Origin: an uncultured bacterium
GTDB taxonomy: Bacteria > Oederibacteriota > CAKKQC01
Assembly: GCA_964400385.1 (NCBI GenBank)
Contig: CAYNUZ010000001.1
Coordinates: 62 to 64,061, forward strand
DNA length: 64,000 nucleotides
Reading direction: 5' to 3'
Shown here: piece after piece, positions 1 through 44,241 of the stretch
How the letters are laid out: every line of letters starts with the position of its first letter
Position numbering within the stretch: position 1 is the stretch's first letter
Made by a program: the position numbers and the translations under genes
The notes under the pieces: model-generated
What the model was told of the DNA's origin: nothing
What the model saw: only the letters and a program-made list of their open reading frames with translations
The model's database searches: none

Positions 1-484
1 CCCGCGGGAACCGGTCCGCGGCCCGGAGCATCAGCACGACCGCCCAGATGTACGCCGCGGCGAACGGCACGTCCTTGGAGTTGGTGAACATCTGCCCGGC
101 GTAGAGCGGCACCAGGGCCAGCAGCCCGGCGGCGAACAACCCCGCCCGCGGCCCGGCCAGCGCCACGGCCGCCGCCCGGCACCCCGCGATCCCGAGCAGC
201 CCGACCCCCGCGTTCACCAGGTTGCGCGTCTCGTGGAGCCCCAGCGGCGACGACCGGCTGAGCCACGCCACCACCGGCTCGTACAGCCCGCCGTAGTACC
301 GCCAGTCCCAGTACCGGAGGAAGGTGGTGTCCCGGCCGAGCGATCCGTAGTAGTTCAGCAGCATCCGGCCGTACTCGCTGCACGTGGGCTCATCCGCGGT
401 GATCCCGAAGTCCCGGAAGGTCCAGAGGACGAGCACCGCCAGCCCGCCGAACAGGCCCCACGTGGCGGCGCGGACGCGGGACAC
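1..484 (-). CDS. GT-C fold membrane glycosyltransferase, ArnT/PMT-like, N-terminal part only (gene runs off the window at position 1); probable GTG start at 484..482
   Basis: Minus-strand translation of 1..484 gives a hydrophobic polytopic N-terminus (VSRVRAATWGLFGGLAVLVLWTFRDFGITADEPTCSEYGRMLLNYYG...YYGGLYEP...LVNAGVGLLGIAGC...). The DEP-type acidic motif right after TM1 is as in ArnT/PMT-family GT-C enzymes and as in the paralog at 49777..51264 (EKPDEPGHFEV). The start lies 3 nt downstream of the stop of the 487..1470 gene. It is not in the ORF track because it is truncated. Confidence 0.45.
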   Translation of the reverse strand, partial: MSRVRAATWGLFGGLAVLVLWTFRDFGITADEPTCSEYGRMLLNYYGSLGRDTTFLRYWDWRYYGGLYEPVVAWLSRSSPLGLHETRNLVNAGVGLLGIAGCRAAAVALAGPRAGLFAAGLLALVPLYAGQMFTNSKDVPFAAAYIWAVVLMLRAADRFPR

Positions 485-486
485 GC

Positions 487-1470
487 TCAGGGGGCGGCGG
501 TCCGGTGGTCGGAGTGCCGCTCCCACGGGTGGGCGCCCACCTTCACCGACAACCCGCTCTTCGCGGGCCCGCTCCCGGGGGTCTCGAGGGTGAAGATGAC
601 CGAGATCGTCTCCCCCGCCGCCACGTCATACCCCTGCTCGAGGGGGAAGATCACCCGGCCCCAGTGCGTGGGCAGCGCCGCGGGGGCATTGGACAGGAGG
701 ATCCCCGGTGCGATGACCGAGTCGAACCACAGCGCCAGCCCGTTGATCCGCCCCGCCCGGTCGGCGGCGAAGGTCACGTCGGCCCGCATCGGGGCCTTCG
801 ACGCGGCGAGCGTCGTGGCCAGCGCGTCGTGGCTCCACAGCGCCTGCGCCGGGGCGAACAGGTGCCCCGCCAGCACGTGGTGCCGGCCGTAGTGCCACTC
901 GTCCACCGTCCAGTCCCAGAACTGCTTGAACGCCACCCCGTACGGCGTGCCGGCCCAGAAGTTCCGGTCGTGCTCCAGCGCCTCGTCGAATGCCGGCGCC
1001 ATCCATGTCGTGACCCGCTCCGGGATCATCCGGCCGCCGGGCTTGAGCCACCGGTCCCGCGCCAGCAGGAGCAGCGGCAGCATCCCCTCGTCCACCCCGT
1101 ACCCGCCCATCCACTCGAAGACGATGGCGTCCACCGGCTCCGGCAGGTCGGCCGACTCGATCCCGGCGCGGACCAGTGTGATGCGGTCCTCCATCGCGTT
1201 GTCCCGGATCAGCCACTGCGTGAAGTCGGCGATCGGCGACGGCTCCACCGCGTACACCTTCCGCGCCCCCGCCTGTACCGCCAGGATGCTGAGGATCCCC
1301 GTCCCCGCCCCCACGTCCAGCACCGCGTCCCCCGGCTTCACCACCGCCTTCAGGCCCGCCCGGAACGCCTCCACCCGAACCACATCCGACACCATCCGCC
1401 GGTGGATATCCAGGTGGTCATACGGCGCATCCGATGTCCTCGCATACTCCGGGGACACCTCCGGGGACAT
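487..1470 (-). CDS. Protein arginine N-methyltransferase (PRMT)-like class I SAM-dependent methyltransferase
   Basis: Within ORF 487..1785 the ATG at 1470..1468 gives MSPEVSPEY...; upstream in-frame residues are Arg/Gly-rich read-through overlapping the neighbouring gene. Motif I VLDVGAGTGILSILAVQAGARKVYAVE, acidic post-I, double-E loop FEWMGGYGVDEGML, and THW loop ALPTHWGRVIF are all diagnostic of the PRMT family. Confidence 0.7.
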   Translation of the reverse strand: MSPEVSPEYARTSDAPYDHLDIHRRMVSDVVRVEAFRAGLKAVVKPGDAVLDVGAGTGILSILAVQAGARKVYAVEPSPIADFTQWLIRDNAMEDRITLVRAGIESADLPEPVDAIVFEWMGGYGVDEGMLPLLLLARDRWLKPGGRMIPERVTTWMAPAFDEALEHDRNFWAGTPYGVAFKQFWDWTVDEWHYGRHHVLAGHLFAPAQALWSHDALATTLAASKAPMRADVTFAADRAGRINGLALWFDSVIAPGILLSNAPAALPTHWGRVIFPLEQGYDVAAGETISVIFTLETPGSGPAKSGLSVKVGAHPWERHSDHRTAAP

Positions 1471-1478
1471 ATATGATA

Positions 1479-2507
1479 TTATGCTTTTCTCGGGGGTGAG
1501 GTGTCGACACCCGGGAATGAGATGCGCACCGAGGGGGCCAGCGCCTCGCCCCGCACGATGCCTCGGCTCACGGCCGATTGGGTGAGCCCCAGCCGCCGGG
1601 CGACGGCGACTTCCGTCCACCCGAGCCGCTCCACCAGCCAGTAGCAGGCCAGCGCCCGCGCCCGGACCCGCGCCGGAATCTTGTTGGGGCCGTTCATGGC
1701 GGCGAAGGGCACGTCGGTCGCCTCCGCGACCTTCCGGATGACGGCGTCCATCGTCACTCCAGCCCGACGGGCCCGGCTCCGCCACCGCTCCTGCTCCTCG
1801 GTGCGCCGCAACGCCTTCTCGACGAAGGATCCGGACCCCAGGACGCGCTCATCCGCTCGGGCGTCGTTCTTCTTCTCTCCGCCTTCCTGCTCCCAGCCCC
1901 CCTCAATCAGGTGCTTGAAACCCGGCTCCTGTTCCTTCGCGTCAGCCTGCGACTGCAGCCCCTTCTCGCAGAAGGCTAGGTAGGCCGACCGAGCGGCTGC
2001 GGTCCCCTTCCCGAAGCGCTTGAGGACCTCATCGATCTCCTGCCACGGCTGCGGGGACAACCCGATCAACGACCGATGGCCGGACCACGGGTAGCGCGAC
2101 AGCCCCGCAAGACTTTCCACCACGCCCGCCCGGACCGGATTCAGGTGGACGTACCGGACGAGCTCAAGGAGATAGGCTTCCTTTTCGCACAGGAGGGACT
2201 TGTACCGGCCCTCGAAGAGATGCCCCGTCCGCTTCCACTTGTTGTTGAAGGCGATCGCGTACCCGCCGAAGACGCCGTGCAGCACCTTGGCCAGCGGCCG
2301 GCTGCCGGTCTCCAGCACCAGGTGGATGTGGTTGGGCATCAGCGCCCAGGCCAGGCACCGGGTCTTCGTGCGTGCGAGGGCGGCAGTCAGCCGATCGAGG
2401 AAGTGGAGGTGGTCGGCCCGGTCACGGAAGATCCGCGCGCGCTCGTGCCCCCGCGTCATCACGTGGTGCACGGCACCCGGAGCGTCCAACCGGCCCTGTC
2501 GCGGCAT
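1479..2507 (-). CDS. IS200/IS605-like Y1 (HUH) transposase-family protein with C-terminal DnaA domain-IV-like HTH
   Basis: HUH motif HIHLVLET, conserved upstream HVMTRGHERARIF block, Tyr-containing helix (FEGRYKSLL...YVHLNP). C-terminal ~90 aa (IPARVRARALACYWLVERLGWTEVAVARRLGLTQSAVSRG) resembles the DnaA C-terminal DNA-binding fold. This single-gene architecture is common and often domesticated. Confidence 0.7.
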   Translation of the reverse strand: MPRQGRLDAPGAVHHVMTRGHERARIFRDRADHLHFLDRLTAALARTKTRCLAWALMPNHIHLVLETGSRPLAKVLHGVFGGYAIAFNNKWKRTGHLFEGRYKSLLCEKEAYLLELVRYVHLNPVRAGVVESLAGLSRYPWSGHRSLIGLSPQPWQEIDEVLKRFGKGTAAARSAYLAFCEKGLQSQADAKEQEPGFKHLIEGGWEQEGGEKKNDARADERVLGSGSFVEKALRRTEEQERWRSRARRAGVTMDAVIRKVAEATDVPFAAMNGPNKIPARVRARALACYWLVERLGWTEVAVARRLGLTQSAVSRGIVRGEALAPSVRISFPGVDTSPPRKA

Positions 2508-2638
2508 GCCTCATTGTGCGGGTTTCCGCCATCCCCGTCAAGGAATCGGGAGATATCATAACTGTCCCTTTTGGGATGTCCCTTTTGGGACCGGGACCTC
2601 AGAACCGAACTGGAACGTAGATCGCCGAATCAGCTGTC

Positions 2639-5600
2639 TCAATGATGATTGTTTCCGTTCCCATTGCTCTTGTCGTCGTGGTTGATCACGAAGTCGTTCG
2701 GATTGTTCCCATTGTGCCACCCGTTGTCGTGCGAATCGCCGGACGGAGACCCGCCACCTGACACGGACGAACCACCGTTTCCTCCGCCGGAAGCCGCCGA
2801 CTGTGGCCCTCCGCCCGCATTCGCCGACCCGGCTGCCACGACCGATTGGCCGCCGGGTGACCCGGCTCCTGAAAGGCGCACCGGCCCTGAGCCGCCCACC
2901 AAGGTCTCATTACCGAGCGCCTGGAGATGGACCAATCTGGACTCCGTCCTGACACCATCCGATGCCATGAACAGTGCGTCATATTTCCCGGGCGCGACCG
3001 AAACACCCTGCTCGTTATGCCCGTCCCAAGCGATCTCATGCCATCCAGGGGAATGTCCGGGGCCGCCGGGCGCGGCATCGTCCGTCATCCAGACGCGCCG
3101 GTTCGACCCTTCCTCGACGACCGCGATCCGTACGGTCGCGGGAAGGCGGAGTCGATAGCGAAGCGTGGTTCCGCCTTGATCGACCTGGAAGGCGGCGGGC
3201 TCAGCGGAGGCCGTGATGAGCAGGGCGTCCATTTGACCATCGACAAACACGGTGGTGGACACCTCGGTCGCCAGGCCGGCGCTGTCTCCCACGACGAGCC
3301 GCAGGCGGTAGGGACCGGACGGGAGGTTGCTGGTGTCCCACAAGCCCAGGTCACCGCCGAGCACCGGTTGATCCGAGACCCCGATCGGTGAGATCGCCGC
3401 GAGCGGAGGAATTGTCGCGAACCCAAGGGCGTAGGAGCCGAACGGAGCAGCCCACGCCGTTCCTGAAACCACCACAACGCCCCGGACCGTCTCGCCCCGG
3501 CCAGGCGAGGCAATCAGCGCTCGCGGACTCCCTGCGCCGACCACCACATGAACCTCCCGGGTGACCACCTCCCCTCCCGTTCCGGTCGCGGTGAGGCGAA
3601 CCACGTATTTTCCGTGCAGTACGTGGGTAGCGTCCCAGGTTCCCAGCATCGAATCGACGACCTGCGAGCTAGATCCCGCGATCGTGGCCCACATGGTTGA
3701 GCCCACCACTGCCGCCTGAAGCCGCCACAATCCCAGGCGTCTCCCGCTGACTGTGCCCCGGACGTTCACTCGGCCTTCGACACTCGCATCATCGCCGGGG
3801 GAGCTGATGGCCACCAGCATGGGGTCGGTCGCGCTGGCGATGTTCGACGGGACACTGAGATTGCCGACCGCATCCTCGGCCCGGACAACATAGTAAAAGG
3901 TCGGTCCCGGAACGAGTCCGGTGTCCGCGGTGTCCGTGAAGTATGTCGTGGTCACGGTCGCGATTCGCGTCCCCAGGGTAAACCCACCCGGCACATCTGA
4001 ACGGAAGATCCAGAACTGCGAGACTGGGAACGTCTGATCCACGGGCTTGCTCCACCCGAGGTCAATGGTTCCTACCCCCCCCACCGCTGCCAGGTCGGTG
4101 ACCGGGAGAACTCCCGGCCCGAATCCCAGTCGTCCAATGTCCACCCCCGAAACGCCGATGGATGTGCCGACCATGGCCGGCGGTGCATTCGGGAACCGGG
4201 ACCGCTCAAAATTGCTCGGGACGCGGTCCAGTTTTTGCACGGTGGAACCGTCTGCAGTGGACACCAGAACCATGCCGCCGAGTCCGTCCGCGACCTGCGT
4301 ATCGGACTGGAATGCCGCGATGAGCCCGTTGGCTCCGGACAAGTGGGAAGCGGTCAGGTCATCACGTTCCCACAATGGAGTCGCCCCGCCGCCGGTCAAG
4401 GCGGCGGTCAAGTCATACGCATGGAGCCGATCCGGGATGCCGGATCCGGCGGCTCCACCGGAGAAGAAGTACATGTGGTTCTGTCCATCAATGACCGGCG
4501 AATAGGCCAGGGGTCGCGCATCCGGATCCGGGACCGCCAGGAGGACGCGCGAGGTTTCCACTCCGCTCGTCCCGTCGAAAATGAGGATGCCCACACTTGA
4601 ACCCACCACAACCTGGCCTCCGACCAACGCCGGCTGGAAGGTGTGGCCGAATGGATCGGTCCCGATCGTGCGGCTCCACTGCAACGTCCCGGTCACGGCA
4701 TCCAGGGAGAACAGTCGTCCGTTGCCGAACGTCGCGTACACGCGGCCATTCCCCGTGATGGGCCCGCCGACGACGGTGTTGTTGTCGATCACGGGAGTGC
4801 CCCCGGTCGTGCCCAGCGTCTTCGTCCATGCGAGCAAACCATCCGTCAGCGAAAACGCCGCAAGGATGTTGTTTTGCCCGGCATAGACCAGCCCACCGGA
4901 TCCAGCGATCTGACTGTATCCACCGATGGCCACCTGGCTGCCGAACCTGTCATGGCTCGTCCAGTTAAGCGCCAGCGTTTCCGTGTCGTATCCGCGAATC
5001 GCCCACGGGCTGTGCAGGATCTGGGGGAATACAAAGTTGACATTAACCACCCCGATGACCACCGTGTTCCCGAAGACGGCCGGCCCGGTAAAGTTCGTCC
5101 CCTCCACCTCGAGCCCTCCGCTGTCCTCGAAGCGGGAGAAGTGCAGGACCTCGCCGGAGGCGAAATCGAGTTGTTGGAAGTACTGGCCCATGACCTGATA
5201 CATCCTGCCGCCAGCGACCGCCGCGCCCCCGGTACCGAATATCACGCCGCCCTCGCTTCCGTACTGCTTCCACTTGAGTTCAAGCGGCGGCTGCGGAGTT
5301 GCGATCGGGCTGAAGGCGCGACGTGCGCCCCAGTACGAGGACATCGGCCAGTCGGCCGGTGCGTTCACGACGCACCCGGCGATCATGGACGTGGCACTGA
5401 CGTGCCCGGCAATATCCTCCGCCTGGACACCGTAATCATGCTGGACAAACTCATCGGCGATGACATCCGTGTACGCGGTGCTGGCCCCGTCGCGCACGAA
5501 GGAGGCAAGGGTCAAGCCCCCTCCGGCCACCGACCGATAGATGAAATAGCCGGATAGGGGCAGACTGGCCCCCTGCGGACTCCACGTCAGCATCACGGTT

Positions 5601-8600
5601 CCGGCCAGGCCGCACGTGGCGACGACGTCCGCCGGTGAGTTGACGAACGGTACAAAGACGTTGACCGTCGCCTGTCCCTGCGGGCCCGTGGCCGTGCTGG
5701 TGTCCCTCGCAGTGATCACCTGCGGACCCCCGGTGAAGAGGGTCGCGCTGAATCGGTGGATTCCCGCATCCGTCTTGCTGAACGCGTAGGGGACCGGGAA
5801 CCGTCCCAGGGGATCGCTCGACGTGAAGGCGACGGTCCCGCCGAAGTTGCTAATCACGTTGTTGAACTGGTCCTCGGCCGTCACCGTCACGCTGAATCCG
5901 ATCGCCGGCGGCGCGCTGGCCGGCGCCTGCACCACCAGCTGGCTGGCCTGCCCGGTGGACGGATGCACCGAGAGCGTCGTCGAACCGTTGATCCCCGGCC
6001 GGTCCACGACGAACCCGCTGATCGTCACGGTTCCGGTCTTGAAGAGCCTTCCCCCAAACGTTCCCCCGCCCGAGGTGATCGAGACGAACGGAGGCATCTG
6101 TGCCTGCGGATCGGAATAGGTGAGGGCGATCGTCCCGATGAAGTGCAGGTCCTGGGCGCCGTCCACGGTGAGGGCCCGGATGACCATGGTGATCGGTTCA
6201 TTCACGGCCGCATTCGCCGGCACCTCGATGACGAGGCGGACGGCCTGCTTGATGCCGAAGGCGGTGTTCCCCGTCACGATATTCAGCTGGGAGATGGACG
6301 GCGCGGCGTTGGTCTCGGCGACATTCTCGCTGCTGACGTAGGTCAGGGCGGGGGTCCCGCCGACGGAACCGAGTTCGAAGCCGACGAGATGTCCTTCATA
6401 CTGGGTCTTGCCGACGGGCAGCAGGGAGGCCGTGTAGAACAACCGCGTGTCGGCGACGGCGGGAGCGGAGAAACTCTTCGCCGCCGTGTACTGGCCCGGG
6501 AGGGTCACATCCGCCGTGGATTGGAGCGCTCCCGTATCCGCGGCGTACACCCGTAACGCACCGTCGGTCCCGCCGACGGCATAAATCCGGCCGTTCGCGA
6601 TCGCCACCTCGGCCGGGAACGTGACGCCCGGCTGACTGATGCTCCAGACCCCCATTCCGTCGGAGGCGCGGATGGCCATCAGGTGCGATCCAGCCGGAAT
6701 GATGACGTTGGCGCCGGCCAGCGAGGGCGCTGCCGTCAGCCCGGTCACACCGAGGTTCATCTGGGCGTGCAGGCTCCCCCACCGTGTCCGGAGGTCGTAG
6801 TCACCGGTTCCGAAGGCGTAGAACAACCCGCGCTCCGTCAGGAAGATGACGCTCTCGCCCGAGACGATGGGCGGGAAGATGCGGTCCGCCGCCGCCGTTC
6901 CCGCGAGCGTGGCGCTCCAGAGGACCCGGTGGGTGGCGATCTCGACGGCAAAGACATGCCCGCCCATCCCGATGTAGACCACTCCCCCGCCCACGGTCGG
7001 TCCGACGCGAGGCGCCGCGGTCGGGGTGGCGGATCCAGGCCCCACGCCGGTGGGGGGCGTGAGGGTCACGGACCAGACTGCCGTCGTCGTGCCGGTGCTG
7101 ACATTCCCCACGCCGTCCAATGCCATCAACGAAGAGCCGTTCGTCACGAAGACCAGGTCGTTCTGGATCGCGGGCCAGAGGGTCACCGGTGGCGCAACCA
7201 CATTCCCAATGCTCCGTTGCCACAGGGAGGTGCCGCTGGCAAGATCCACCGCCTGCACCACCCCGCCCGCGGTCTGCCGATAGAGGTGCGTGCCCATGAT
7301 GGCGCCCGCGATATACGCGCCCGCCGTGGTGCCCCACTTGCGCGTCGGCTGGAAATAGAAGACCTCCGACTTCGCGTTGCCCTGGTGGGACACCTCCCGC
7401 TGAATGTGCCGCCAGTTGGTTTCGACGAGCGCTGCGGCGGACGAGCCGTTGCTCGGCTCGCTCCACTGTCCGTGATCGTCGCGCGCGCGCACGATGTAGG
7501 CGTACGAGGCCCCCTCCTCCACGGTGTCATCCACGAAGGCTATCGTGGAGGCACCCGATAACCGGGCGATCGGCATGAAGGGAGAATCCCCGCTCTTGCG
7601 GAACACGTCATACCCGGATACCGGGAATGAACCGTCATTCGCGATGGTCCACCCGAGACTGACTCCCCCCGACACCCCGGTGGCGACAAGCAGTGTTGGC
7701 GTCTGCGGACCCGGGAACACCGTTACAGGAGCAACCAGTGACGGCGGACTTTCCAGACCGTGCGACTCGACCGCCGTGACCCGGTAATAGTAGGTCGCGA
7801 AATCTGCGACACCAAGATCGACGTACAGTGTGGCGCTCCGCCCGCTGGGCGCTGCGATGAACGCAAACGGGCCGGCCGCTCCTGTGGCCCGGAAAAGGCG
7901 ATAGCCGACAACTGTGTCGAGGGGCAGAGCAGGCAGATTCCAATTGACCGTAGTCCGCTCGGCTCCGCCTTCGGCCACTACGTCAACGGGCGGATGTGGC
8001 AGGACCGTGACTGTAACGCTTCCCGCCAGCCCACCCGTGTCCGTCACCGTGATGGTCGTAGTTCCCGTAACGTAAACGGTCGAGGTGGCAAACCGCCTGA
8101 GTCCGCCATTCGCTCCTGTCAACGATGTGGCTGCCGGCAGATTGGCGAACTGGTCAGTCGAGGTGAAGGTAACCGTACCGAGATACGAGAGAACCTGACG
8201 GCCCGTCAGATCCATGGCGGTCACTGTTTGGGAGAATGTCACTCCTGCGACCAGTGGCGGCATGACGGTGATCCGAAATGCCACGGGGGTATTATTGGAA
8301 TACGCCACCGTCCCGGCTAGGTTGGTCGTTGAACGGAATGCGAACAAACGATGCCGCGCCACCATCAGCGGGGATCCTGTATTCGAATCCGTCCCCCGCC
8401 ATACTTCCACACCGAAAGTACTGGACACCGTGGCCTGCCGTAAGACCGCAGGCCGTCGGTCACCATTGTTGAGGATGTCCGTGACATAGACATCACCGTG
8501 GACGATGGGTGGCGCCTCCGTGGAGTCAGCTGGCGCTGCCCAGAGGAAATGCCCATCCGTCCCGTCCAGGACATAGATTAGCGTGTGACTGGAAACGCGC

Positions 8601-11600
8601 ACGAAGGTATAGACTCGGCGCGCCGAATCGATCGCGCTTGCCGAATGGATCTGTACGCCAAGCGATGGCGGCGAGGAGATGATTCGCGAGAACCACCGGA
8701 ATCCGCCGTCTGCGAGATTGAGAGCCAGAATTCCGGTCGTGGTCCCGCTCAAGGCGGGGACGACGATCAGATCCTCCCCGATCGTGGGAACTCGGGTGCA
8801 CGCGAAATCGGCGTTTCGCCATTTTTCCACCCCCGTCATCGCGTCGAGCGCCATGACGCCATTTTTCGTTCCGACCACCACCAGGTGATCCCGAACCGAA
8901 GGCGCGCCCCGGCTCGTAAAGTGCTCGTCGACGGCATCTGCAAAGAGCGTTTCCGTCCAACGGACTTGACCGGTCGTCATCTCCACGGCCAGGGCATCAC
9001 TTCCGCCGGGGCCGAGGAACCGCTGCCGGACGACGTAGGCCAACTCCCCTGTGGACGCGCCGATTGCCGATTGCCCGGCCGCCATCGGAGGGCTCAACTT
9101 AATCCCGCCACCCAGCGTCAACGTCCAAGCGAATGCGCCGGTGTCGGCCCGATACCCTTGGAGACGGTCGGAGAAGGTCACACAACTGCAGGGGCACTCC
9201 AGCAGTCCGAATCCGGTGATGACTAGACGCTCATGCTCATACGTCATGCCTCGGATGCCAATGTGTCCGACCACCGTCCGGCTCCATAAGATCGTTCCGG
9301 TGTCCACGTCGCGCGCATGCAGGAGGAAATTCCTGGCAGAAATACATGTGACGACACCTGGCCCGCGGATCACGGGCTGCGGAAGTTGCGTCTCGGTATA
9401 GACCCGCCCGTGTGCAACCAGGACCGGCCCCCCGGTATTATTGGCCGTTGTCGAGGCCGACCAATCCAGCCGGTACGGGGGCGAGACGGGCTCAAACTCC
9501 GGTGCTGAAGTTCGGGCATTCGAGAACGAGTATCTCGGCCAGTCGTGGGTCGTGATGAAGTAGGGGCCGTAATCCCGCTCCGGGCCGGCGTTACCGACGC
9601 CGTCCACGGCCCGGATGTGCAGCACATGCTCGCCATAGGCGTGCTCGGCTAGATGAACGATCGCATCGGCGGGGACCCGCCGGAATCCTACCTCATCGTC
9701 CACCCGCCAGTCGAAGAAGCGAACGCCCGACGGGATTTTTCCCTGATCGCCGCCCGAGTCGGTCGCGGTCATGGTGATATCGGTGTCGTCGAAGACATAG
9801 GTATGCCCGTCCGCAGAGGCTAGCGGCTGCGGATTGAAGAATGCCGTCGCTAGCCCCGGCGGCGTGAGATCAATCGTAAACCTCAGCTGGCGACCTCGCC
9901 CGAAATTCGTTTCATCCGAGCAATTGCCGACCCGATCGCATCCAAAGATCTTGATCGTATAAGTGCCTTCGGCCCGCCCCAGACCGGGGGTGATGGCTGC
10001 GGGGAACGGCTGAATCGGTTCGTCGTCAATCCGGTAGAAAGCGTGGTCAAAACCGGAACCTTCGAATCCGTCGCCATAACCGTAGGACACCTGCGTCGAG
10101 GGGCCGATGAAGACGCCGTTGATCCCGATGTTTAGGACAGCGATGCCTGCCCCCTGGGCGATCAATGCTGGATCAAACGAAGTCGCCGACAGGAGGCCAT
10201 CCAGCGGAAGCGGAATGCCCTGCGATGTCGCGGAGAAGACGAAGTCCGCCTCGGTCAAGGTTGCAGTGGCAGGCGGCAGCGACATCGGGGCTTGGGGCTG
10301 GCTGGGGCCGACATAGGACGGCTGGCCAATTGTGAAGGCCAGAACGGGAGGCCGCGAGTCCACGATAATCGTCGCCGAGCGGATCCGTTCGCTGTTCCCC
10401 GCGATGTCCACGCTCTGCCATGACAGAAGATGCCTGAGGTTCAGGACGGCACCGGTGAAAGTCTCCGTAAACGGCAAAAGCCGTCCTGTGGTGCCTTCGC
10501 GGAAGTCGGTCTCCGTCACAATCCCACTTCCCGTGTCGGACGCGGAGAACCCAAGCGTGGTCGAAGGAGAAACGAAGAGCGCCAAGTCTCCGACCGCGAT
10601 CGGGGTCGCCGTCACCATGTGGGCGCCGAACACCAGCGTGGTGGTGGGCGGATCTACATCAAGCCAGCGATCGGCTCGGGCCATGACACTTTGATTCCCC
10701 ACTCGGTCTCGGGTCACAACTTGATAACTGTATTTCTGACCGTAGACGAGGCCCTGGTCGACGAACAGAGCCGTGCTTGGGACCAGGCCCGTGCCCGTCA
10801 GCGGAATGTCGTCCCTCGAGACGAGAATGCCTTCCACGTCGGTGGACGAGGGCGAAACCCAGTCGAGCCGGATCACGCTGTGCGTCACCACCCGCGTGAA
10901 TAGATTACTGACGGGTGGCGGCGGGGTCAGATCCACCTGGACGATGGCATCCACAGCCCCGGTGTTCCCCACCCGATCCGCCCCCAGCAGGTGAAGGAGG
11001 GCGGGGCCGTCGGCGAGACTGCCGCTCCCCAAGAAGACTGTCGCCTCGAATTGAGACTGTCCGTCCAGCGCCGCCGTCGCGGAGAACTCGACCGGCAAAT
11101 GCACCCCAAATCGATCCGTGAGGCTACCAGTCAGTGCATCCAACGGCTCGGACGAAGCGACGTCCACCACGAGAGGCCCTAACCCAACGGGATTGGGATG
11201 CACGGTCAAGGTCAGTCGCGGGGCGCCGGCATCCACAACGAACGTAGCTGAAACCGTCTTCACCAGAGCACCAATCGTTGCCGTAACGAAGACCGTCGAG
11301 GTTCCGCTGATGGAATTCGTCGGCACCCCGATGGTCGCGAAGAAACTCCCGCTGGCTTCCCGGGTCCCCGGCACCACATCGGCGATCAGCTCGACGGAGG
11401 TCGTCGTCGGCAGACCGGGGAATTTGACAGCGACCGTCGGCTTCCCGATCAATGCACCGGCACTCACGAAGAGATCGATACCTTCGCCAGGACTCACACG
11501 GGCCGGAGCAACTCGGATCTTGAGCGCCGTCAGGCCCGGGTCAACATAGAAACTACCCTGACCTTGGCCCTTGGTTCCCAGCAGATCCGCTCCTACGGCG

Positions 11601-14600
11601 TCGATAAACACCGTTCCCACGGGATGCGCAGGATCGACTGTGTAGGTTGCGACAAATGTGTTTGAGGGCCTGAAGATCGTCCACGCCTGGCCGACACTGA
11701 ACCCGGAGTGCGCGGGGTCCACCACAATTTGGCCTGAGCCGTCGCGCACCACCACCTGGAAACTCCCACCCACGACGGAATTCCCGTTGATGCGCGCGTC
11801 GTCGATGAAATACGTGGAAGTGCCGATCACGATTTTCCGGTTGGTGAACCATCCAGCGGGGGGAAGGTTCAGAGGCTCCCCGGGAGAAAATTGCCGAAGG
11901 GTCAGCGGGCTGGTTTGCACCTGCGTCACATCCCCGATGCCGACAATCGTCCCGGTGACGATACCCAGGGTGGGAAAGACTGCCGCCCACGTCATTCCCG
12001 GCTGGATGCCAGCTGCCCGGCCATCGGTGACCTCGGCGCCGGAAAGGGTCTGGAGTAACACGTGCGTCCGGTCGCCCGTCGGGCTGGGCTCCAGAATGAC
12101 TTGTTCGACGAGGAAATGCATCGTTCCGATCGTGATGGGCGTTCCTGGCCAGGCCTCCGCTGACGGAACAACGGTGGTCCCGGACGCAACGGTCACCCGC
12201 TCAAGATGAAGCGCGGAATACAGGGCGGGCTCACCGACCACGGCAATCGTGCCGTTCAACATGGGTACAAGCACCGGCGCCACCCCGGACAACGTTCCCG
12301 CGACCCGGGGAGCGGGCGGCGTCACGGTCAGTACGGGGGGTCCGGAAAGAGTCTTGGTCGACTCCAGGAAGATGCGCACGTCACCGACGCCGGAAGGATC
12401 TGGAGCCGCCTGGATCTTGAACCGGGGCGGTGTGGGATCGGGCATGACCTCATAAGTCGAAAACTCGGAAATCTCGGAGAGAATGAGCTTGTTCGTGGTG
12501 TCCACAAGCGCTCCGACAACTTCGACGTGTTCCACACCGCCCGACCGGGAAAGTCGGAACAAGTTCATGAGGCCTTCAGGAATTCCAGATGGAAGCTGTC
12601 GGGGGTCGTAGTGGACCATGAGGCTCGCCGGGAGAATGACATTGTGGCCGGCGTCCTGCACGAAATCGTTCTTGGACAGTCCGGTTTCGACGCTTCCTGC
12701 TGCTGCGTGGAAATCGAAGATCAGCCCCACCGGAACCTGGTTGTTGGCAAACAAGGGTACCGCCAAGGGATCCAGCTGCCGGATCGAGATGAGCTTCTCG
12801 TTTCCCGCCGTCAGGGCACCCGGGGCAAACTGAAGGAAGACTTCTTCATAGGCGTCGGTGGCGAATCCGCCCTTGTCCGAAATCCGGTGACCCACCTTTG
12901 CCGGAATCGACATCACCTTGGCGTTTCCTGAGGCATCCACGACGGTCAGTACGAGCGTGTACGCCCCGGGCTGCAGTCCGGTGACGTCCCAGTACCCGAG
13001 AATCCCACTCTCGATGCTGACGGTCGACGTCTTGATCGGCACGAGTGGTGCGGAAGACCCCCCGCTTCCGAGCTTCGCTTCGAGCGTGTAAGATCCTCCG
13101 GGTAAGAACTTAGCCGTACCCGTGATTTTGACGAAGACATGGGCAGCGTATGGGACAGGAGAGGGGTCTCGCAGCCGGGTGATCACCTGGTCAGCGAGCT
13201 GCTGCTGATACGACTCCCCACCGCCATATCCCTCCTGGTAGTTTAGCGACGGGCTGGTCAAATGGTCCGTTTGTACGGCAAACGGGGTGGCATCGGTGAA
13301 AATGCTCGACCCGAATGCGGCATCGACGGTAGCAATCACGATGTCAGGATCGGGGGTGGCCGTCTGCGGATAGACGATTCCGCCGATGTACCAGGTGCTC
13401 GTGTGCGGCGTCGTCGCCGGGCCCTCCCCCGCGAAGAAGGATCCGGCATCCGACGGGAACGGCCGCTGGGCCTGCGGGTGCAACTCTTGCAGACGCTCGA
13501 AGATGTTCACCCGATTCGGCTTGTTCCACTTCACCAGGTTGTCGCGCATCGTATCCCCGGTGATCGACCATCTCCGCTTGTCCAGAATCAATTGCGCGGC
13601 GATGGTCGCCTCGATGCCGGTTGCCGAGACTGCCGCACTCAGGAGGGTAGTTGAAACAGCCGCGGTTTCCGCATAACTTGCGGGCGGAACGGGCGGAACC
13701 AGGTTGATATTCCCGATGGTGCCACCGAACAACGGCTGAGGTATGGCAAAGGCATGGAATGTCGAGGGGGTTGGGCTGGCCACTGCGAGTCCGGAATTTT
13801 GAAATGCGAGATGTGTTCGGGTAATCGAGACCGGAAAGTCGCGACCGTACGCCAGATTCACCTGTCCAGATCCCGTGACGACCACGGTGTAGTTTCCTGG
13901 GAACCCAAAGAAACTCCCCTCCGGAGCGCCGCCGCTCCCAGAACTGTCGAAAAGCGTTGATCCGGTGCTTCGAATGACACGGAACAGTGACGATCCGGTC
14001 CGTGCCCAGTACACCAGCAGCTGGTGAGGGTCCAGGGAGACTGTGGCGGAACCTGGCCCCGCCACCGCGAGTCCATAGCGCACGGTTGCAAGCGCCCCAT
14101 AGGTCGCCAGGGTCGCATGGACCGAGCCTGATGTCGTTCTGGCTGCCTTGATCCGGTAACGACCCGGTTTGAGCTGCACGTAAGTATGGATCGAATGGGT
14201 GAACGTCGTGGTGACCAATGCCCCTTGAAAGGTGGTTCCCGAAATCGTCAGGTATGCGTTTCCGGCGATCGTGAGCGTCAAGGGAATCGGTACGGGAGCC
14301 TCTGGAAAACCCTGGATCGAGAAGACAAACCGCGTGCCCGTCGTCGTCGAAGTCGACAATTTGATTTGCGCTCCGCCAAGGCTAGGAGCATAGGGCGTCG
14401 CCAGCGGACCGATGGCGCCGGGCTCGGTGACGACGCCCACATCGATCCCCGCAGCTGCCGGGGACTGGACCGCCACCGTATACTCCGCACCGGACTGCGC
14501 CAGGAATGTCCCGCTCATGCCGGTCAATGCCATACCCGGCCCTGTGATGGAGACGGCTCCCGAACCTCCTGAGCTTTGCCAGAACAGGGGCTCGGTTCTG

Positions 14601-17600
14601 TCAAGCACAAACGAATCCTTGACCTGGACGTTTGACCCTGGAGAAGTAACATTCATGAAGGGAAACAGGATATTGACCGGTTTGCTTTCGTCGAACGAGC
14701 CGCTGAGCGTCCAGAGAAACTCAAGGGCCGAGAGGCTTCCGGGGGTCAGGCGTGTGGTGACGGTGCCCGTCAGCAAACGGTCGATTGAGCCCCAGGCATG
14801 ACTCGTGAAGCCATCGAGCGTGACGAGGTCCGTGTAGTTATTCTTGATCGCCACCTCCGCCAAGCCCGTCGCCACGGCAGAAAATCCACCGACTCCGCCG
14901 AATCCGAATGTGGGGGCCGTGAGGGTCGCGCTGTTCATCCCCGCGGGCGGGTTGACCCGGAAGACGGTCCCCTCCTGGGGTTCATCGACGTGCTGACACA
15001 CGACCCCGCCGATACACTGTCCAGGAGCGTGGGGCTGGGAGAAGGAATCGAAGTGCAGAGTGTGATCAGGGGTCATCCGAAGTTCGAAGGGCCGGCTGAT
15101 GGCGCGGTGTGCGTACAGAAGCTGCGGCGATAGCATCCCGATCGAAGGCAGCGCGGTGTACTGGACACAGAACGGCGTGAAGCCCGGCGCCACGATGTTT
15201 CCCTGGACGTGCGAAGTCCCATGGTGGCATCCGTCGCCGGTCGCACAGGCATGAAGCGTCAGGGTCTGGTTGTATTTGGTGTCGATCAATTCGCCCTTTC
15301 CGCCGCATCCCGTTTCGATGACGTACTGGCTGAAAAGGCCTGAAATGCCGTAGACAGCATCCGCCGGGCCTTCATTCTCTGGTGCCGAGCATCCCCCGCA
15401 ACCGGTGAAGACGGAAACGCTGGCGATCAGATTGAACGGGGCAACGTAGAGCGCGTCCAGGCAGGACTGTGCTGTCCCGCATGGAATTCCTCCGTCGCCG
15501 CCTTCACATTCGTCTACGGTGCGCGCCCCCAGTGGCCCGAAGATGTTGATGCAATCGCCAAGCGGGGCCCCGCCCGCGTACCGCAGGACGCCAGGATGGT
15601 TGACCCACTGCTCAGTCCCGGTCGCCATGGCCCGTGGACGAACAAGATACGGGGCGTCATAGGCTCCTGCCCCGGTGACCGGCATCTCAAAATAAGGCGT
15701 TGGCGTTCCGTCCAGTTCCGCGGAATCGAAGGACGACGTCACCGTCGAGCCGGCAGCTCCCAACACCGTCAGTGACACCAGCAGTTGCGTGGTGCTGAGC
15801 CCCGAGATGGCCGTCAGGCGAGCTGTGTACGCACCAGCGGGAACAACGGCCCCCCCCGTATCCGTACCGTCCCAAGCCGCAGCTGCCGATCCCGCCGCGA
15901 ACGTCGGGCTGGACGCCAGCGTGGAGATCACAGCGTTGCAGCCATCAACGATTTCCATGAGGACGTTGGTGCTTGCTCGGCTCACGCCGTATGTCATCGC
16001 GCTGACCCCTTTGAGGGGATCACCGGGAAGGATCTGCACCGGACTCACTGCCAGCCGGGCACTGTAGGGAATCGTCCAGGTCACGGACTGGGCGTTGACC
16101 TGACCACTTTGTCCGGTCACCGAAAGAGTGACGGTGACCGTACTCGCATCCAACACGCTCACATCGAGGGCGCCGAGCGCGCTCGCCACGACCGACCGTC
16201 GAGCCGTCACCAACACCACCGGCGTTGGATTCGTATTGGTCCAATAGGACAGGGTGTAACCATTCAATGCCTCGGGTATACCCGCTGTCGCCGTCCCGTC
16301 AATTTCAACCTGACCAGACACGATACTTCCGCCGGATGGGGCGCTGATCTGGGCAGTGAGGAAACCGTTTGAGACGACATACGCAGCATCCACCTGACAC
16401 GTTGTTGACGCCAGAACGGGGGCAGTCGAGAACGCTTGTGCATGGTACGTGCAGTCTCCGGGCAACCCGAGGGCAGCGGGATCGAACGTCGCGCGCCACA
16501 CCGCACTCGGATCGGAATCCTTGACTGCCGTCAGAACCACGGGGGTGATTGGGACTCCACTACATGTGGCCGTGACGTCAATGTGGATCGCCGTCGAGTC
16601 CGACCGGGCCACCGATAGCTGGGTGGTCGCCCCGAATGGCGTGGGGCTTGCGGTGAAATTGTAAAATCCTGCGGGATTCGCAATCTGAAACCGTGCGGTA
16701 TCCTGGTCAATCACACCGCCCGTCGCATCCACGAGGAACACCCCGACCTCATACATTCCGTCCTTGAGGCTTCCCACGGGCAGGTCGGCGAGGCGGTCTC
16801 CCGTCACCTGGATCACGGCCGTGGTCGGATCCGCACCGAAATACTGAAGCGGTGTCGTCGGGAGTGGCAAGTAATCGCTGGGTGCGAAATAGGTGACAGA
16901 CAATGGCCGGATCGCAATCCGGTACCCGCTGAAGCCCGCCGGGTTGGACGCGGTGCCGACAATTGCGATCGCCTGACCATCAACGGAAGCATCCAGCAAC
17001 GGCGTACCTGTCGCCGGGTGATTGCCGAGTGCGCTGATGTGCGGCGGGAACTTTCCCTTGATTACGACCACATCAGCGCGGGCGATGTTGCCGGCGATGT
17101 CCATGACTCTCAGCCGGACGGTATAGAGACCGTCGCCCACGTATCCGATCGAGCCGTCCTCACGTTCCCCTCGTCCGTCCCACGCGAGGGCGATGGGTGT
17201 TGCGGCCACGAAGAAATATCGTTTCTGAAAACCGGTCGTGTCAACCACCCCCGTAACCGGGTCGATGCGGGAATCCTCGTCAGCAGTTGCAGAATCGCCG
17301 ATGTAAGCCAACGTCGCGGAGACCCCCTGCTCGATGCCCTGCGCCAGCACTGCAACCCTTCGCCCGCTGGATGCGTCAAGCACTTCAGCATCCACAAACA
17401 CTCTCGGACTTGCACCGGTCTTGACCGAAACGAAAACATGCGCGAGCGGCCGGCCCGATGACGCCAGCTCGGGACTGAAGATGAGCGGGGAACTGAACGG
17501 CGGAGGCGAAAGCAGGGGGGCCGAGTTCGCCGGGAGCGCCAGGAACCGCGAGGTCAAGTCATTCGTCTCTGCGAAGAACGTGAATCCGCCCGGCTGCAGC

Positions 17601-20600
17601 TCGGTCGTGATCAGGACCCGGTCTCCCACCGCCCGGACTCCGGTCGGAGTGTTCGCCACCGCCCCCAGTGTTTCACTGTGGGATGTGATCTCCTCGTACA
17701 GTCCGAGATTCTCCTCGAGTATTGCCTCCCGATGAACCACATCGCCGATGGATGTCCCGAAAAGGCCGAGGTTGAGATCAAGATCCCGGTGCGCGTAATG
17801 GACAGTCAGTCTCGCGCCCTGGTTCTGGGCAAAGTCTCCGACTCCAAGACGCGGCATGACATCCCATAGCGGCCCAATCGTCTGCATCTCCGAGGAGAGC
17901 GGCGAAGCCGGCGGGCCCCCAATCGAATACACGTTGACGTACCGAATTCCAGCGTCGGGGTTGGAGGCCCCTCCGCTGAACTGCACCTCCAGCTTGTCAT
18001 ATGGGTCGGACACGATCGTGGGATTCGTCTCTGCCGGATCGATTGGGACGCCCAGGAAGAAGGCCTCCTGGTCCACTTCCTGGAGGCCTGAAAATCCCGC
18101 GAGGTGCTCCTGATAGATGGTGGCGGAGGGCCGGAATGGTCCTTTGGTGTATGCGAATGGGGCGCCACCGGCCAGGGGCGGCAAATGATTGTCGGTCATC
18201 CGCATCCTCAGGGCATACCGTCCTGCGAGCTCGAGCGGCGAGGTCTTCCATTCGGCCATCCGCCGTACAATCGCCCCTGGCACCGGGGTCGTGAACTCAG
18301 CGATCGTATGACCCGGGTCGATGAAATCTCCCGCACCGGGCTGATCCGGACCTTCCAGTCCACGGAATTCCAGACGTGCTTTCTGGAATCCCAGCGAGTC
18401 CCCATTTCCGATCATCGTCAAGAACATCGCGCCCTGGTAATGCGGCCGAAGCTGGACCAGGAAGGAGGTCGTCGGCGATCCGAATGCCGGAAAGGGCACG
18501 GATCCGATTTCAAGACCGGTTGCGGGGTCGACGAAGGCCACGTCGGGATGCGGCTGATTATCGGAGGTGAACGCTTTCAGAATATTTCCTGCGACGGTGG
18601 CCGGAACCGTCACCAGATCACTCGGCAACTCACCAGGAGCCGCAGCAAGGTAAGTCAGACGGCCGGTGCCGAACGTACTCTGCGCGCCCGTGGCCCTCCA
18701 GGTGTAGCTGGTTGTCGCCCGGGCTACGGAATCACGGTGTGGGAACTGAGTCCCGTCGACGTAGACATGCAGCGTTTGGGAGACCTCATGCCCTGCTGCA
18801 TTCGCCGCGGTCACCTTGACGAGGTGCAGCCCGCCATGCGGCAGGGGCATTTTGATCCGGAAGAAGGCATTTCCGGTCGATCCATCCTCGTCCGTCGTGA
18901 TCGTGTCGAGGTCCAGGGCCGCCTCGAAGACTTGGCCGTCATCCGCCTGGGCCGAGATCTTGACCAGGTGCGGGAGGTAATCCGAGACGTGGCCCTCCAA
19001 TGTCAGGATCGCCCGATTGGTGTTGTATCCAATGACGCCCCCATCGGCTGGATGCGTGATCGTGAGAACCGGAGGCGGGTCCAGCAGCTCCATGATCTGC
19101 CCACCCGCCTGGTGTGCGGCCCCCCGGTAAGCGAAACTCCCGAAGGCGTCTCCGGAGCTCCCCAGCAATGGCAAGCCGGCTGCCGCGTCGCCGAGACTCG
19201 AAATTCGATCGCCCGTTCCCAATGTCTGTTGATGCACTACTCCACCGGAACCGGTGAACCGGCTGATCAGTCCGCTGGCGACGCCGCTCTGTGCTCCCAG
19301 GAGCGCGGAGAAATTCCCCTTTCCCGTTTCGGTGAGGGCGTCGTAGAAAGCGAGGAACTGGAACAGGTGGTCGATGAACGGGGTCGCGAGCTGCAACGCG
19401 GTCAGCACCTGGTGGGTCGCCACCGCGGCGCTATCCATCGTAAAATTCTTGTTGTTGCTCGTCGTATCGTCGGACTGGAGGATGCTCACACTCCTGATAT
19501 GGGCCGGCAGCGATCGAAGCCGGTTCACCCGGTCCTCTGTATCGTGATACAACGCGCGCAGCGTGAGATATCCGTCGAGGATCCCGCAATCCTGCGGCCT
19601 TTCCCCCAGCAGACAGGTCGTCCCATTTCCCAGTGCGTTGAGCACCAGCCCCTTGTATTGGCTTCCTCCTGGCAGCTTGTTGAACAGACCGGATGCGGAA
19701 CTGCTGACCTGGTCGGCATAGGTGTACGCCTCGCACTTGAGAACATCCTCGGAATGTTCAAGGAGATAGGTCGCGGATGAGAACAGCTCGTCGGGGATGG
19801 CCCAGAATTCACCGTCCAGTCCAGACACCACGGCCAGATATGCGTCAATGATGGAATAAGCCTCCGAGAGATTCTCGAAGGCAATCATGAGGTCTTCGCC
19901 GTCACGCAGGACCTGCTGGAGACCCGGATCGCCAAGGGGCGAATTGTTGTAGAGGAGATGGCCAACGAACCCTCCTACGCTCTCCGCTGGGTCGGTGAGA
20001 AGGTCGTTGACCGGGGTTGTCTGATCGCCGAATGCCATCAATTTTGCCCGCAACGCCGTCACGTGGCCGGACAGCCCCATCGCCGCCCGTTGCGCGCTGA
20101 TGTCGTTAAGACGGTTCCTGAGATCGTCCTTCACAATCTTGGGGTCCTTGTCGGTGGAGACTCCGCACAGGTTTGTGTCGATTCCACGGCCTGACAGTAT
20201 TCCCGAGAACATGTCGTGCATGCCCGAAGGGATCTTCGGAAACACCAGATGCCACGGAACATACCCGCGGAATCGAAGATTGATTCCGGAGAACGTTTTC
20301 AAATAATCAAGGTCGGCTTTGAGGCTGATGTCGAGGTTCAGGTCCAAGTGGCCGAACCGAAAACCCGGCGGGGTGAATGCGGTCCCCGGAAGCGCCTCGC
20401 CGGGCACCGACCCCTTGCTCACGATATTGACCGACAAGGTGTGGTGCTCGTCCTGACCCGGCTGGCAGGCGACACAACTGCCCGTGTCCCCGTTCACGAA
20501 CCCCTGGACGGCACCGGTCGTTTCCGAGTCACCCAACGTGTCCAGCACGTGACCCGCGGTGTCCGTTGCGGTGACATGAAAGTGGTTCCCACCGTTCAAG

Positions 20601-21257: not shown

Positions 21258-22973
21258 TCATAGGATGTCGGGTCCTGGTTCGTAACCCGAGAACCATGTC
21301 GCGCCAGGAACGGAACAGGCCATCGAGGCAGGATTGGAATCCAGCACGAGAAGATTGTTTTCTTTATTGACGGAGTTGATCAGGAGTCTGACTTGGTGCC
21401 CCTTGAGCCTCGCATTCACCAGTCCGGGATTGAGGATCGCAAACCACAGGGCGGCCCCCTTGTTCTTGTTCGGCAAACTACGAAAGAGAGAATCATCGGG
21501 CGATCCACCATGTCCGGCGGATTTCGTTTCGGTCACTTCCGAAAAGATGTAGACCGTCCCACCCAAATCGGTCCAGAGGTTCAAGGGGATTGCAGTGTCT
21601 GTCAAAGAGAACTGCACCATGCCCCGTGTCGCCGCACTATCATTGGGCAGCTGCGTCCCCCCCACATCTTCGTTAAAAAACGCCGCCACACCAAGGGGCT
21701 GGTCGAATGGGGCACACCCGCGTACTTCTCGGTCCAGGAACCGGGTGGTCGAAGCCGGGGCTGCCGGGTTCACCGCTCCCCTGAGCCAAGCACTCCGCAT
21801 GATGAGGGCCGCAGGCTCGGGCGCTCCAGCATGAGGATTTGAAAGGTTGTTGGCCGAACTCCCAAGTATTGATGGACCAGAAGTATTTCCAAAGAAAAAG
21901 AGATTACGACGTGCATTGTTCGTCGTGGCCGCCTGAAAACTTGCGACCAGCGAGTCTTTGACTGAGCTGATTTCCACCCCCTGAACCATTGGGGGGATGA
22001 AGTGAAAGTAGTGCTCAAGTATCTGCGTCGCAGACAGTCCTTGCGCCGCAAGGGCGATGAGTCCCTTTTGACTAAGACCTATTTGATTGGTCCGATTGTC
22101 ACCCCCCGGCTTTCGGAGCCCAGTTGCAGCATCAAGGGGGTAGATTGGGCTTGCGTATTCTGGGCTCGGCTCCACTCGGTCCTGTGCGACCCATCCTCCC
22201 CCACCTGTGACGTTACAGTCTGCACTAAGTCCCTGGGATGTCACATCGACGAACGGCAGGGAGACCGGCTGGTCATCACCGCGAGTTGCCACTGGGAAAC
22301 TCGCCGTCTGAAATGGAGAATTGGGGTCTCCAAATATGAATTTCCATGCGACATCCGTAAATGCCCCATCACTTCCCGGCAAGATAGGATCACCAAAGAC
22401 AAAATGCTCTCCCGATCCGGTTCTGGGACTCCCGCTTGAATCCTGGAACGCCGCAAGGACAAGAGGAATTGCTCCCGCCCCCTCCACGACAAGAGCTGAT
22501 TGCCCGCCTGGGAGGGAAACGATCGGCGGAGGTGTCGCTCCGGGATTCCCGGTCCCCGCCATCAAAGAGAGCAATTCATTCAGCTCGGCGCGTTCCTGTG
22601 CTTGAAACGCCTCCCGCCGCCTCGCGTCACGAACATTTACGGGGATGATCGAGGTCGGAATCCTCTGAGCGACGTCAATTTCGCCGAGAGCGACCGAGGC
22701 CAGGAACTGACGCATCGTCATGACAATAGATCCGTTAAATTTTGTCAGACTTGGCCGCCCGGACTCCTTTTCACTCGGATTCGTGGAGCCCAAATAAGCC
22801 ATGAACGGCTGGACTTTGACAAATGCCGGCATCGTCAAGATCGAACCGCCCGTCTTCGTCAGCGTGGTTGAAGGATGAGAGAACTGCAGGCGAGAAGACG
22901 CAAGCGCACTGGACGACCAGAAACTAAGGAACAGCACTGCGAAGCCGCGAGATCCTGACATCGGTCTTGGCAC
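21258..22973 (-). CDS. Secreted protein with SpoIID/LytB-like C-terminal motif
   Basis: N-terminal signal peptide (MSGSRGFAVLFLSFWSSSALASS). Motif NQIGLSQKGLIALAAQGLSATQILEHYF matches the conserved G-x-S-Q-x-G-A...IL-x-h-Y-Y signature of the SpoIID/LytB domain. The rest is unassigned. Confidence 0.5.
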   Translation of the reverse strand: MPRPMSGSRGFAVLFLSFWSSSALASSRLQFSHPSTTLTKTGGSILTMPAFVKVQPFMAYLGSTNPSEKESGRPSLTKFNGSIVMTMRQFLASVALGEIDVAQRIPTSIIPVNVRDARRREAFQAQERAELNELLSLMAGTGNPGATPPPIVSLPGGQSALVVEGAGAIPLVLAAFQDSSGSPRTGSGEHFVFGDPILPGSDGAFTDVAWKFIFGDPNSPFQTASFPVATRGDDQPVSLPFVDVTSQGLSADCNVTGGGGWVAQDRVEPSPEYASPIYPLDAATGLRKPGGDNRTNQIGLSQKGLIALAAQGLSATQILEHYFHFIPPMVQGVEISSVKDSLVASFQAATTNNARRNLFFFGNTSGPSILGSSANNLSNPHAGAPEPAALIMRSAWLRGAVNPAAPASTTRFLDREVRGCAPFDQPLGVAAFFNEDVGGTQLPNDSAATRGMVQFSLTDTAIPLNLWTDLGGTVYIFSEVTETKSAGHGGSPDDSLFRSLPNKNKGAALWFAILNPGLVNARLKGHQVRLLINSVNKENNLLVLDSNPASMACSVPGATWFSGYEPGPDIL

Positions 22974-22992
22974 GGATTCGAATTACCCCTCG

Positions 22993-33219: not shown

Positions 33220-33246
33220 GGTTCCCGGCCGGCGGGGCCAGGCGGC

Positions 33247-35319: not shown

Positions 35320-35320
35320 C

Positions 35321-39867: not shown

Positions 39868-39901
39868 GGACCCATTCTAGGTTGTGGAACCGCGAAACCT
39901 G

Positions 39902-42184: not shown

Positions 42185-42316
42185 CCGCCCCCCCTACTGA
42201 TTCGAGAAGATTTGGAACTTTCTAGAATATACTGTAGGTAGATTGTATGATGTCAATCGTGATCGGGTTCAAATCTGATGACCAGATCATCGTCCATATC
42301 CATGTGAGAAATCGAC

Positions 42317-44236: not shown

Positions 44237-44241
44237 TCGCA

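Follow-up and report, generated by a model that had tools for sequence, protein, structure and literature searches.

Arginine methylation is regarded as a mode of regulation found mainly in eukaryotes. The DNA analyzed here, a 64,000-nucleotide stretch from an uncultured bacterium of the Oederibacteriota (hereafter the window), carries near one end an ORF that a first-pass annotation, made from the sequence alone, had read as a bona fide protein arginine methyltransferase (PRMT) gene, apparently in an operon with a GT-C glycosyltransferase gene and rare of its kind in bacteria. This locus raises three linked questions: whether the product is a PRMT rather than a generic Rossmann methyltransferase, whether it is functionally tied to its neighbor, and on which substrate it would act.

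The gene product belongs to the PRMT family

The ORF lies on the minus strand, runs from ATG 1470..1468 to TGA 489..487 and encodes 327 aa plus a stop codon (Table 1). A longer reading of 432 aa, from GTG 1785, was rejected as an artefact because it overlaps the upstream gene and because the starts of the homologs lie no more than a few residues from ATG 1470. The ORF is intact, with a dN/dS of 0.25 against an ortholog of 82% identity, and the gene is under purifying selection; dN/dS values against relatives of 55-59% identity are unreliable because synonymous sites are near saturation. Its GC3 of 0.95 resembles that of the GT-C fragment (0.99) and of native-looking genes such as that for DsbD (0.94), and is unlike that of the giant ORFs and the few low-GC ORFs of the window. 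The contig is bacterial and also encodes DsbD, PdxJ, GNAT, AadA-like nucleotidyltransferase and GH3 proteins, and no rRNA, tRNA or other Rfam match was found in the window. Among named sequences, the best PdxJ homologs belong to Burkholderiales (67-69% identity).

A phmmer search against PDB sequences gave matches far stronger than expected by chance, with PRMT6 first (E 1.5e-41; alignment over aa 16-315) and PRMT8, Hmt1/PRMT1, PRMT2, PRMT3 and CARM1 next (E 1e-35 to 1e-30). PRMTs made up all 60 of the matches listed; PRMT7 and PRMT9 matched far more weakly (E 1.9e-16 to 6.6e-10). Pfam PRMT_C, the profile of the barrel and oligomerisation subdomain, covers aa 155-295 with an E of 2.2e-9 and 37.9 bits, above its cut-off of 27. 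An AlphaFold2 (AF2) model built on 54 homologs reached a pLDDT of 92.3 and a pTM of 0.90; in it, aa 142-319 consist almost entirely of strands, with helices 163-173 and 182-188 inserted among the strands of the barrel. When this model was compared with the PDB using Foldseek, the best 50 matches were all type I PRMTs, including PRMT6, PRMT3, PRMT2 and CARM1 (TM 0.77-0.82 over 314-329 columns). By profile and by structure, the nearest proteins are thus type I PRMTs and not small-molecule or RNA methyltransferases.

The protein also matches Pfam PrmA (E 4e-9, aa 40-117), and NCBI names the homologs P0024 and P0081 “50S ribosomal protein L11 methyltransferase,” which would make the product a PrmA acting on ribosomal protein L11, or else a generic methyltransferase. 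The PrmA match, like the generic methyltransferase matches, is confined to the shared Rossmann core, the C-terminal PRMT barrel and the double-E and THW loops are not PrmA features, and the structural matches are all PRMTs. No NCBIfam model qualified, and prmA (TIGR00406) scored 30.5 bits against a cut-off of 183.15, so that the L11 methyltransferase label is wrong at the family level and this reading is scarcely credible. A PADLOC match to mad2 of the MADS defence system was also set aside; it is limited to aa 42-151, within the Rossmann core, and no defence genes were seen among the neighbors.

The catalytic signature described in the first-pass annotation, consisting of motif I, the double-E loop FEWMGGYGVDEGML and the THW loop, was found where it had been placed, and the barrel-like C terminus corresponds to PRMT_C and to the strands of the model. 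Among the 54 aligned bacterial homologs, D29, R32, E76, E119 and H269 are invariant, as are V50, L51, D52, G54, G56 and T57 of motif I; E76, within YAVE, is the post-I acidic residue. Conservation reaches at least 90% at Y17, H23, M26, E111, W120, E128, T268 and W270, so that both glutamates and the THW residues are retained in the orthologs. In an alignment of 85 bacterial family members with mouse PRMT6, the query equals the mouse protein at all 14 tabulated sites. Its double-E loop aligns with SEWMG-YGLLHESML of mouse PRMT6, E119 and E128 matching both PRMT6 glutamates, and Y17, H23, M26 and D29 are the same in PRMT6, with M26 and M130 aligned to the methionines of HEEM and HESM. Of the YFxxY lid, only the last tyrosine (Y17) is kept, together with H23 and M26, residues 1-16 having low model confidence. 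From PRMT1 structures, we take the conserved residues to correspond to those for SAM binding, to the two guanidinium-binding glutamates, to the THW-loop histidine with its partner aspartate and to the two methionines. Taken together, sequence, profile, predicted fold and catalytic residues agree that the gene product is a true PRMT-family protein and not a generic Rossmann methyltransferase, as the first-pass annotation had proposed.

Table 1. Features of the PRMT-like gene and its flanks, in window coordinates
Feature	Position	Strand	Basis or remark
PRMT-like CDS	487..1470	-	ORF, translation, PDB phmmer, AF2, Foldseek, dN/dS
Motif I VLDVGAGTGIL, SAM-binding glycine loop, aa 50-60	1291..1323	-	sequence and 54-homolog alignment
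Double-E loop FEWMGGYGVDEGML, aa 118-131 (E119, E128, M130)	1078..1119	-	alignment to PRMT6
THW loop THWGR, aa 268-272	655..669	-	aligned with THWKQ of PRMT6
Beta-barrel and dimerisation-arm helices, aa 155-295	586..1008	-	Pfam PF22528 PRMT_C, AF2 model
N-terminal helix region, aa 17-29 (Y17, H23, M26, D29)	1383..1422	-	putative counterpart of the PRMT alpha-Y lid
Sigma-70-like promoter match TCGACA-18-CATAAT (candidate)	1478..1507	-	consensus scan, 10/12 positions
5' part of GT-C (PMT_2-like) gene, cut by window edge	1..526	-	start GTG 526 or GTG 484
IS200/RAYT-like Y1 transposase with C-terminal HTH, upstream neighbor	1479..2507	-	Pfam Y1_Tnp E 2.2e-7

Genomic context of the gene

The downstream gene is truncated by the window edge, which explains why its Pfam PMT_2 score (E 3.3e-5) falls just under the cut-off; the fragment is divergent, and its single database homolog (P0392) carries PF13231. 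The adjacency noted in the first-pass annotation is real, with one correction: if the GT-C gene starts at GTG 484, the gap after the PRMT stop codon is 2 nt and not 3. If it starts at GTG 526, the two genes overlap by 40 nt; this second start has a Shine-Dalgarno-like motif, GAAGGTGGG, 9 nt upstream, and the gene call on a matching Logan contig (L001) begins at its equivalent. No terminator was found between the two genes, and there is no room for one. Since they also lie on the same strand, the PRMT and GT-C genes are likely co-transcribed in this genome, possibly from a promoter just upstream. A sigma-70-like consensus scan, which returned 3 sites in 3 kb against 0.2 expected, gave a candidate with its -10 box ending 7 nt upstream of ATG 1470; if used, this consensus match would yield a leaderless or nearly leaderless message.

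The operon reading is thus likely as regards co-transcription, and fails as regards conservation of the pair. The closest ortholog (L002 6016-6965, equivalent to window 1446-497; 82% protein and 81% nucleotide identity) aligns over the coding region alone, its flanks being unrelated on both sides. Downstream of it lies a gene other than the GT-C gene, with only a weak alignment between their products (29% identity over 76 aa), and the RAYT-like transposase is missing beside the ortholog. Eight further relatives lie in eight other gene contexts. We compared the GT-C fragment by tblastn with 84 loci, made up of 83 related loci and L001, and the sole match was to L001, which is the Logan copy of this contig. 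At the 84 loci we also clustered every ORF of 100 aa or more lying up to 4 kb from the PRMT match; no neighbors recurred in the clade of the query, recurrent ones being confined to the Actinomycetota and lasso-peptide clades. The adjacency of the PRMT and GT-C genes therefore looks like a local accident and not a functional module.

The upstream transposase, a neighbor that we do not count as belonging to the PRMT system, also matches NCBIfam REP_Tyr_transpos (E 2.8e-17, below the cut-off). Around this gene, a search for REP elements gave no convincing inverted repeats and just a tandem 14-mer.

The window is rich in GT-C-type genes (three PMT_2, a TMEM260-like, a DUF2079 and a DUF2142), and the GT-C fragment is unrelated to the other ones. 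Elsewhere in the window there are a DegT sugar aminotransferase gene and giant surface-protein-like ORFs. The density of GT-C-like genes, together with the shared strand and the 2-nt gap or 40-nt overlap described above, keeps alive at low probability the idea that the PRMT-like protein is coupled to the GT-C enzyme and to envelope glycosylation, with surface proteins or a glycan-linked guanidino group as its target. This idea is at odds with the lack of the pairing in the ortholog and in the 83 related loci, and the IS200/RAYT-type transposase immediately upstream hints at local rearrangement. It also meets a topological difficulty. The outer side of the membrane is where GT-C enzymes work, whereas the PRMT-like protein, in which no signal peptide or transmembrane segment was found, is expected to be cytoplasmic and needs cytoplasmic SAM. 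With no export signal, a direct mechanistic link to the GT-C enzyme is unlikely, and the functional tie to glycosylation put forward in the first-pass annotation was not supported; we regard such coupling as very improbable.

Bacterial relatives and the question of substrate

Scanning one genome for each GTDB species confirmed relatives in 168 species or more, from at least 10 phyla. These phyla include Poribacteria, Verrucomicrobiota, Planctomycetota, Myxococcota, Acidobacteriota, Actinomycetota (with Streptomyces), Chloroflexota, Cyanobacteria, Gemmatimonadota and Pseudomonadota. A word-indexed search, in which 8000 candidates were scored, gave 1482 clusters at 90% identity with E<=1e-5, the best 120 of these 1482 being proteins of ~315 aa and 42-82% identity, from metagenomes and MAGs. 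An exhaustive search of 1.84 billion representatives at 50% identity, in which eukaryotic PRMTs were counted as well, gave 837 matches at E<=1e-30 and 6091 at E<=1e-10. At JGI, some of the homologs are annotated as “type I protein arginine methyltransferase.” The family is therefore sparse as a fraction of species, yet neither rare nor unknown, and a bacterial radiation of PRMTs has been described (Aravind et al., PMC3417536). Of the earlier statement that bacterial PRMTs are rare and largely uncharacterized, the first half does not stand, while the second agrees with our literature search, of limited coverage, which returned no paper characterizing the stand-alone bacterial clade, the remainder dealing with eukaryotic PRMTs or with unrelated methyl-arginine chemistry.

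Four forms can be told apart within the family. The clade of the query (a) is stand-alone and has the full PRMT6-like signature, without conserved neighbors. An Actinomycetota clade (b) has the same signature and recurrent GNAT, SnoaL, LuxR-AAA and sulfatase neighbors. The members of a third clade (c) lie in lasso-peptide clusters and are without the double-E and THW residues, and a Streptomyces SznE-like form (d) adjoins an HDO+cupin protein of SznF architecture, with PRMT9 and PRMT7 as its best PDB matches. A rough neighbor-joining tree, for which there are no support values, puts mouse PRMT6, its one eukaryotic sequence, among those bacterial sequences that carry the signature. This position agrees with PMC3417536.

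Clade (c) bears on the possibility that the query tailors a RiPP or another secondary metabolite. About 17 distant relatives are clustered with a lasso cyclase (Asn_synthase; in L085 it forms a fusion with the PRMT-like domain), a Transglut_core3 peptidase, HPr-kinase-like and NTP_transf_5 proteins and an ABC exporter, and bacterial PRMT relatives in peptide-antibiotic operons are on record (Aravind et al., PMC3417536). The lasso clade, however, is only ~30% identical to the query, forms a separate branch of the rough tree and has lost the signature, with D-L-R, Q and I-Y in place of E-W-M, E and H-W; the lasso-type neighbor families are absent beside the query and its clade. A role of this kind is accordingly quite implausible for the query.

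Form (d) raises a weightier alternative, in which the methyl acceptor is free L-arginine or some other small guanidino metabolite and not a protein, as for SznE/StzE in streptozotocin biosynthesis. SznE is a characterized arginine-guanidino N-methyltransferase acting on free L-Arg (PMC11705231, PMC12637814), and a Streptomyces relative of the query (L074; ~31% identical, PRMT_C E 1.5e-13) lies directly upstream of a gene of SznF architecture (HDO+cupin). Enzymes of the PRMT fold can thus accept free arginine with E..E and the xHW loop kept, such that the fold alone is no proof of a protein substrate, and the query stands alone, without an obvious protein partner. The SznE-like protein nevertheless comes from another lineage: in the PDB it is matched best by PRMT9 and PRMT7 (1.8e-46), with PRMT6 at just 1e-26, an order that is reversed in the query. 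It has I-V at positions 120-121, S268 and N17, where the query and PRMT6 share W-M, T and Y, and neither the query nor any of the nine relatives examined has an SznF-like or other biosynthetic gene next to it. We therefore consider a free-arginine substrate unlikely, though less so than either a glycosylation-linked or a RiPP-tailoring role.

Proposed activity and comparison with known systems

On balance, we favor the explanation that the product is a type I arginine N-methyltransferase, soluble, cytoplasmic and dependent on SAM, which probably acts on arginine within peptides or proteins. Based on the residues shared with characterized PRMTs, SAM would be held by the Rossmann domain via motif I, E76 and R32, while E119 and E128 would hold and polarize the guanidinium of the substrate arginine in a pocket shaped by H269 of the THW loop, paired with D29. 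In PRMT1, M48 and M155 line the pocket and favor asymmetric dimethylation. M26 and M130 occupy the positions of these two methionines, which may restrict the product to mono- and asymmetric dimethyl-arginine; position 130 is M, F or L among the 54 homologs, and the product type is therefore uncertain. The barrel and its arm probably form the usual head-to-tail dimer. The substrate would most likely be an arginine in one of the cell's own peptides or proteins, and the occurrence of nine relatives in nine neighborhoods, often with their own intergenic gaps, fits a stand-alone enzyme.

A broader proposal joins two statements: that a stand-alone canonical type I PRMT, present in at least 10 bacterial phyla, installs mono- and asymmetric dimethyl-arginine on bacterial proteins, and that the bacterial stock was the ancestor of the eukaryotic PRMT1/6-type enzymes or exchanged genes with them. 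We hold the chances for and against this joint proposal to be about even. If it is true, the modification is one almost unstudied in bacteria, and this gene is a convenient minimal representative with which to find bacterial substrates. A widespread bacterial clade with all the type I catalytic residues implies that this chemistry may also be applied by bacteria to proteins of their own, and the clade offers minimal, easily expressed models for the mechanism and origin of PRMTs. Bacterial PRMT relatives being already on record, this copy, without a new architecture or context, is one more example and not a discovery.

Within the stand-alone clade, whose members share 42-82% identity, a length of about 315-330 aa and the same invariant residues, the query forms a small sub-clade with P0002, P0004 and P0005 (55-82% identity), and among the relatives examined, the flanking RAYT-like transposase and GT-C genes occur in this genome only. 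The lasso-cluster proteins belong to the same fold family and are also bacterial but, unlike the query, are always found in RiPP clusters and do not have the double-E and THW residues. SznE/StzE, the L-arginine N-omega-methyltransferase of streptozotocin biosynthesis, comes closer, being a bacterial protein of PRMT fold with PRMT_C, two loop glutamates and an xHW loop as in the query; it differs in its PRMT7/9-like lineage, its free amino acid substrate, its location beside SznF, its ~31% identity and the four signature positions given above. With the eukaryotic type I enzymes (PRMT6, PRMT1/8, PRMT2, PRMT3 and CARM1), the query shares the two-domain core over its full length at ~30-34% identity, including motif I, the double-E and THW loops, the arm-bearing beta-barrel and methionines at the two PRMT1 positions. 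Compared with them, it is a minimal protein of 327 aa from a bacterial host, without SH3, zinc-finger or PH-like domains, in which the YFxxY lid is cut to one tyrosine, the double-E loop has an extra glycine (EWMGGYG) and the C terminus carries a clade-specific W-E-x-H tail.

Surroundings of the PRMT gene

Upstream, the type I PRMT-like gene adjoins an IS200/RAYT-like Y1 transposase gene, itself preceded by two tandem copies of the 14-mer TCCCAAAAGGGACA. Both copies are small hairpins, and the 14-mer occurs nowhere else in the window. Both genes are preceded by sigma-70-like matches whose -10 boxes end 7 nt (PRMT) and 5 nt (transposase) before the ATG, a spacing that, at the sequence level, suggests leaderless transcripts in the source organism.

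Envelope-glycan genes and ORFs of unusual size or composition

The truncated GT-C gene downstream of the PRMT gene is a glycosyltransferase of unusual divergence, and among 5.8 billion clusters it has a single detectable homolog (P0392, 38% identity). Envelope-glycan genes are densely packed at window 31609-51264. The two giant ORFs have a GC3 of 0.74-0.78, below that of the PRMT gene, and the translation of the larger one suggests repeated propeller- or FN3-like segments plus a Gly/Asn-rich tail. Four further ORFs, in which DUF1349 was the sole Pfam match, lie clearly below their neighbors in both GC and GC3 and may be foreign DNA.

Features of the window and of two loci carrying PRMT relatives (L085, L074)
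Feature	Position	Strand	Remark
GT-C fragment	window 1-526	-	
Sigma-70-like match (PRMT)	window 1478-1507	-	
IS200/RAYT-like transposase	window 1479-2507	-	C-terminal HTH
Sigma-70-like match (transposase)	window 2513-2541	-	
14-mer pair	window 2563-2590	-	
Giant ORF	window 2639-21199	-	6186 aa
Giant ORF	window 25422-31355	-	1977 aa
Four low-GC ORFs	window 21258-24303, 39902-44266		GC 0.55-0.57, GC3 0.59-0.68
DUF2079	window 31609-33219	+	
PMT_2 genes	window 33247-35658, 44242-46248		
TMEM260-like	window 38098-39867		
DegT aminotransferase	window 47138-48328	+	
DUF2142	window 49777-51264	+	
GH3	window 61238-63736	+	beyond the dense set
Asn-synthase/PRMT-like fusion	L085 4441-6891		
SznE-like locus	L074 5752-11490		Streptomyces sp. 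NPDC057743

PRMT relatives in other gene clusters

In the Actinomycetota clade (L018-L043), GNAT and SnoaL-like genes are conserved beside the PRMT gene; together with a 472-aa PRMT/GNAT fusion protein (P0021), these neighbors hint at paired modifying enzymes. Another PRMT-fold clade, whose members no longer carry the double-E and THW residues, resides inside lasso-peptide clusters (L085, L045, L055-L058, L060, L068, L072, L073, L075, L077, L079-L082), surrounded by Asn_synthase, Transglut_core3, HPr_kinase_C, NTP_transf_5 and ABC genes. At L074, a PRMT7/9-like methyltransferase adjoins an HDO+cupin protein resembling the streptozotocin enzyme SznF, a LysE exporter and an Ada/MGMT repair protein, and the locus resembles an N-nitrosourea cluster of the streptozotocin type equipped for self-protection.
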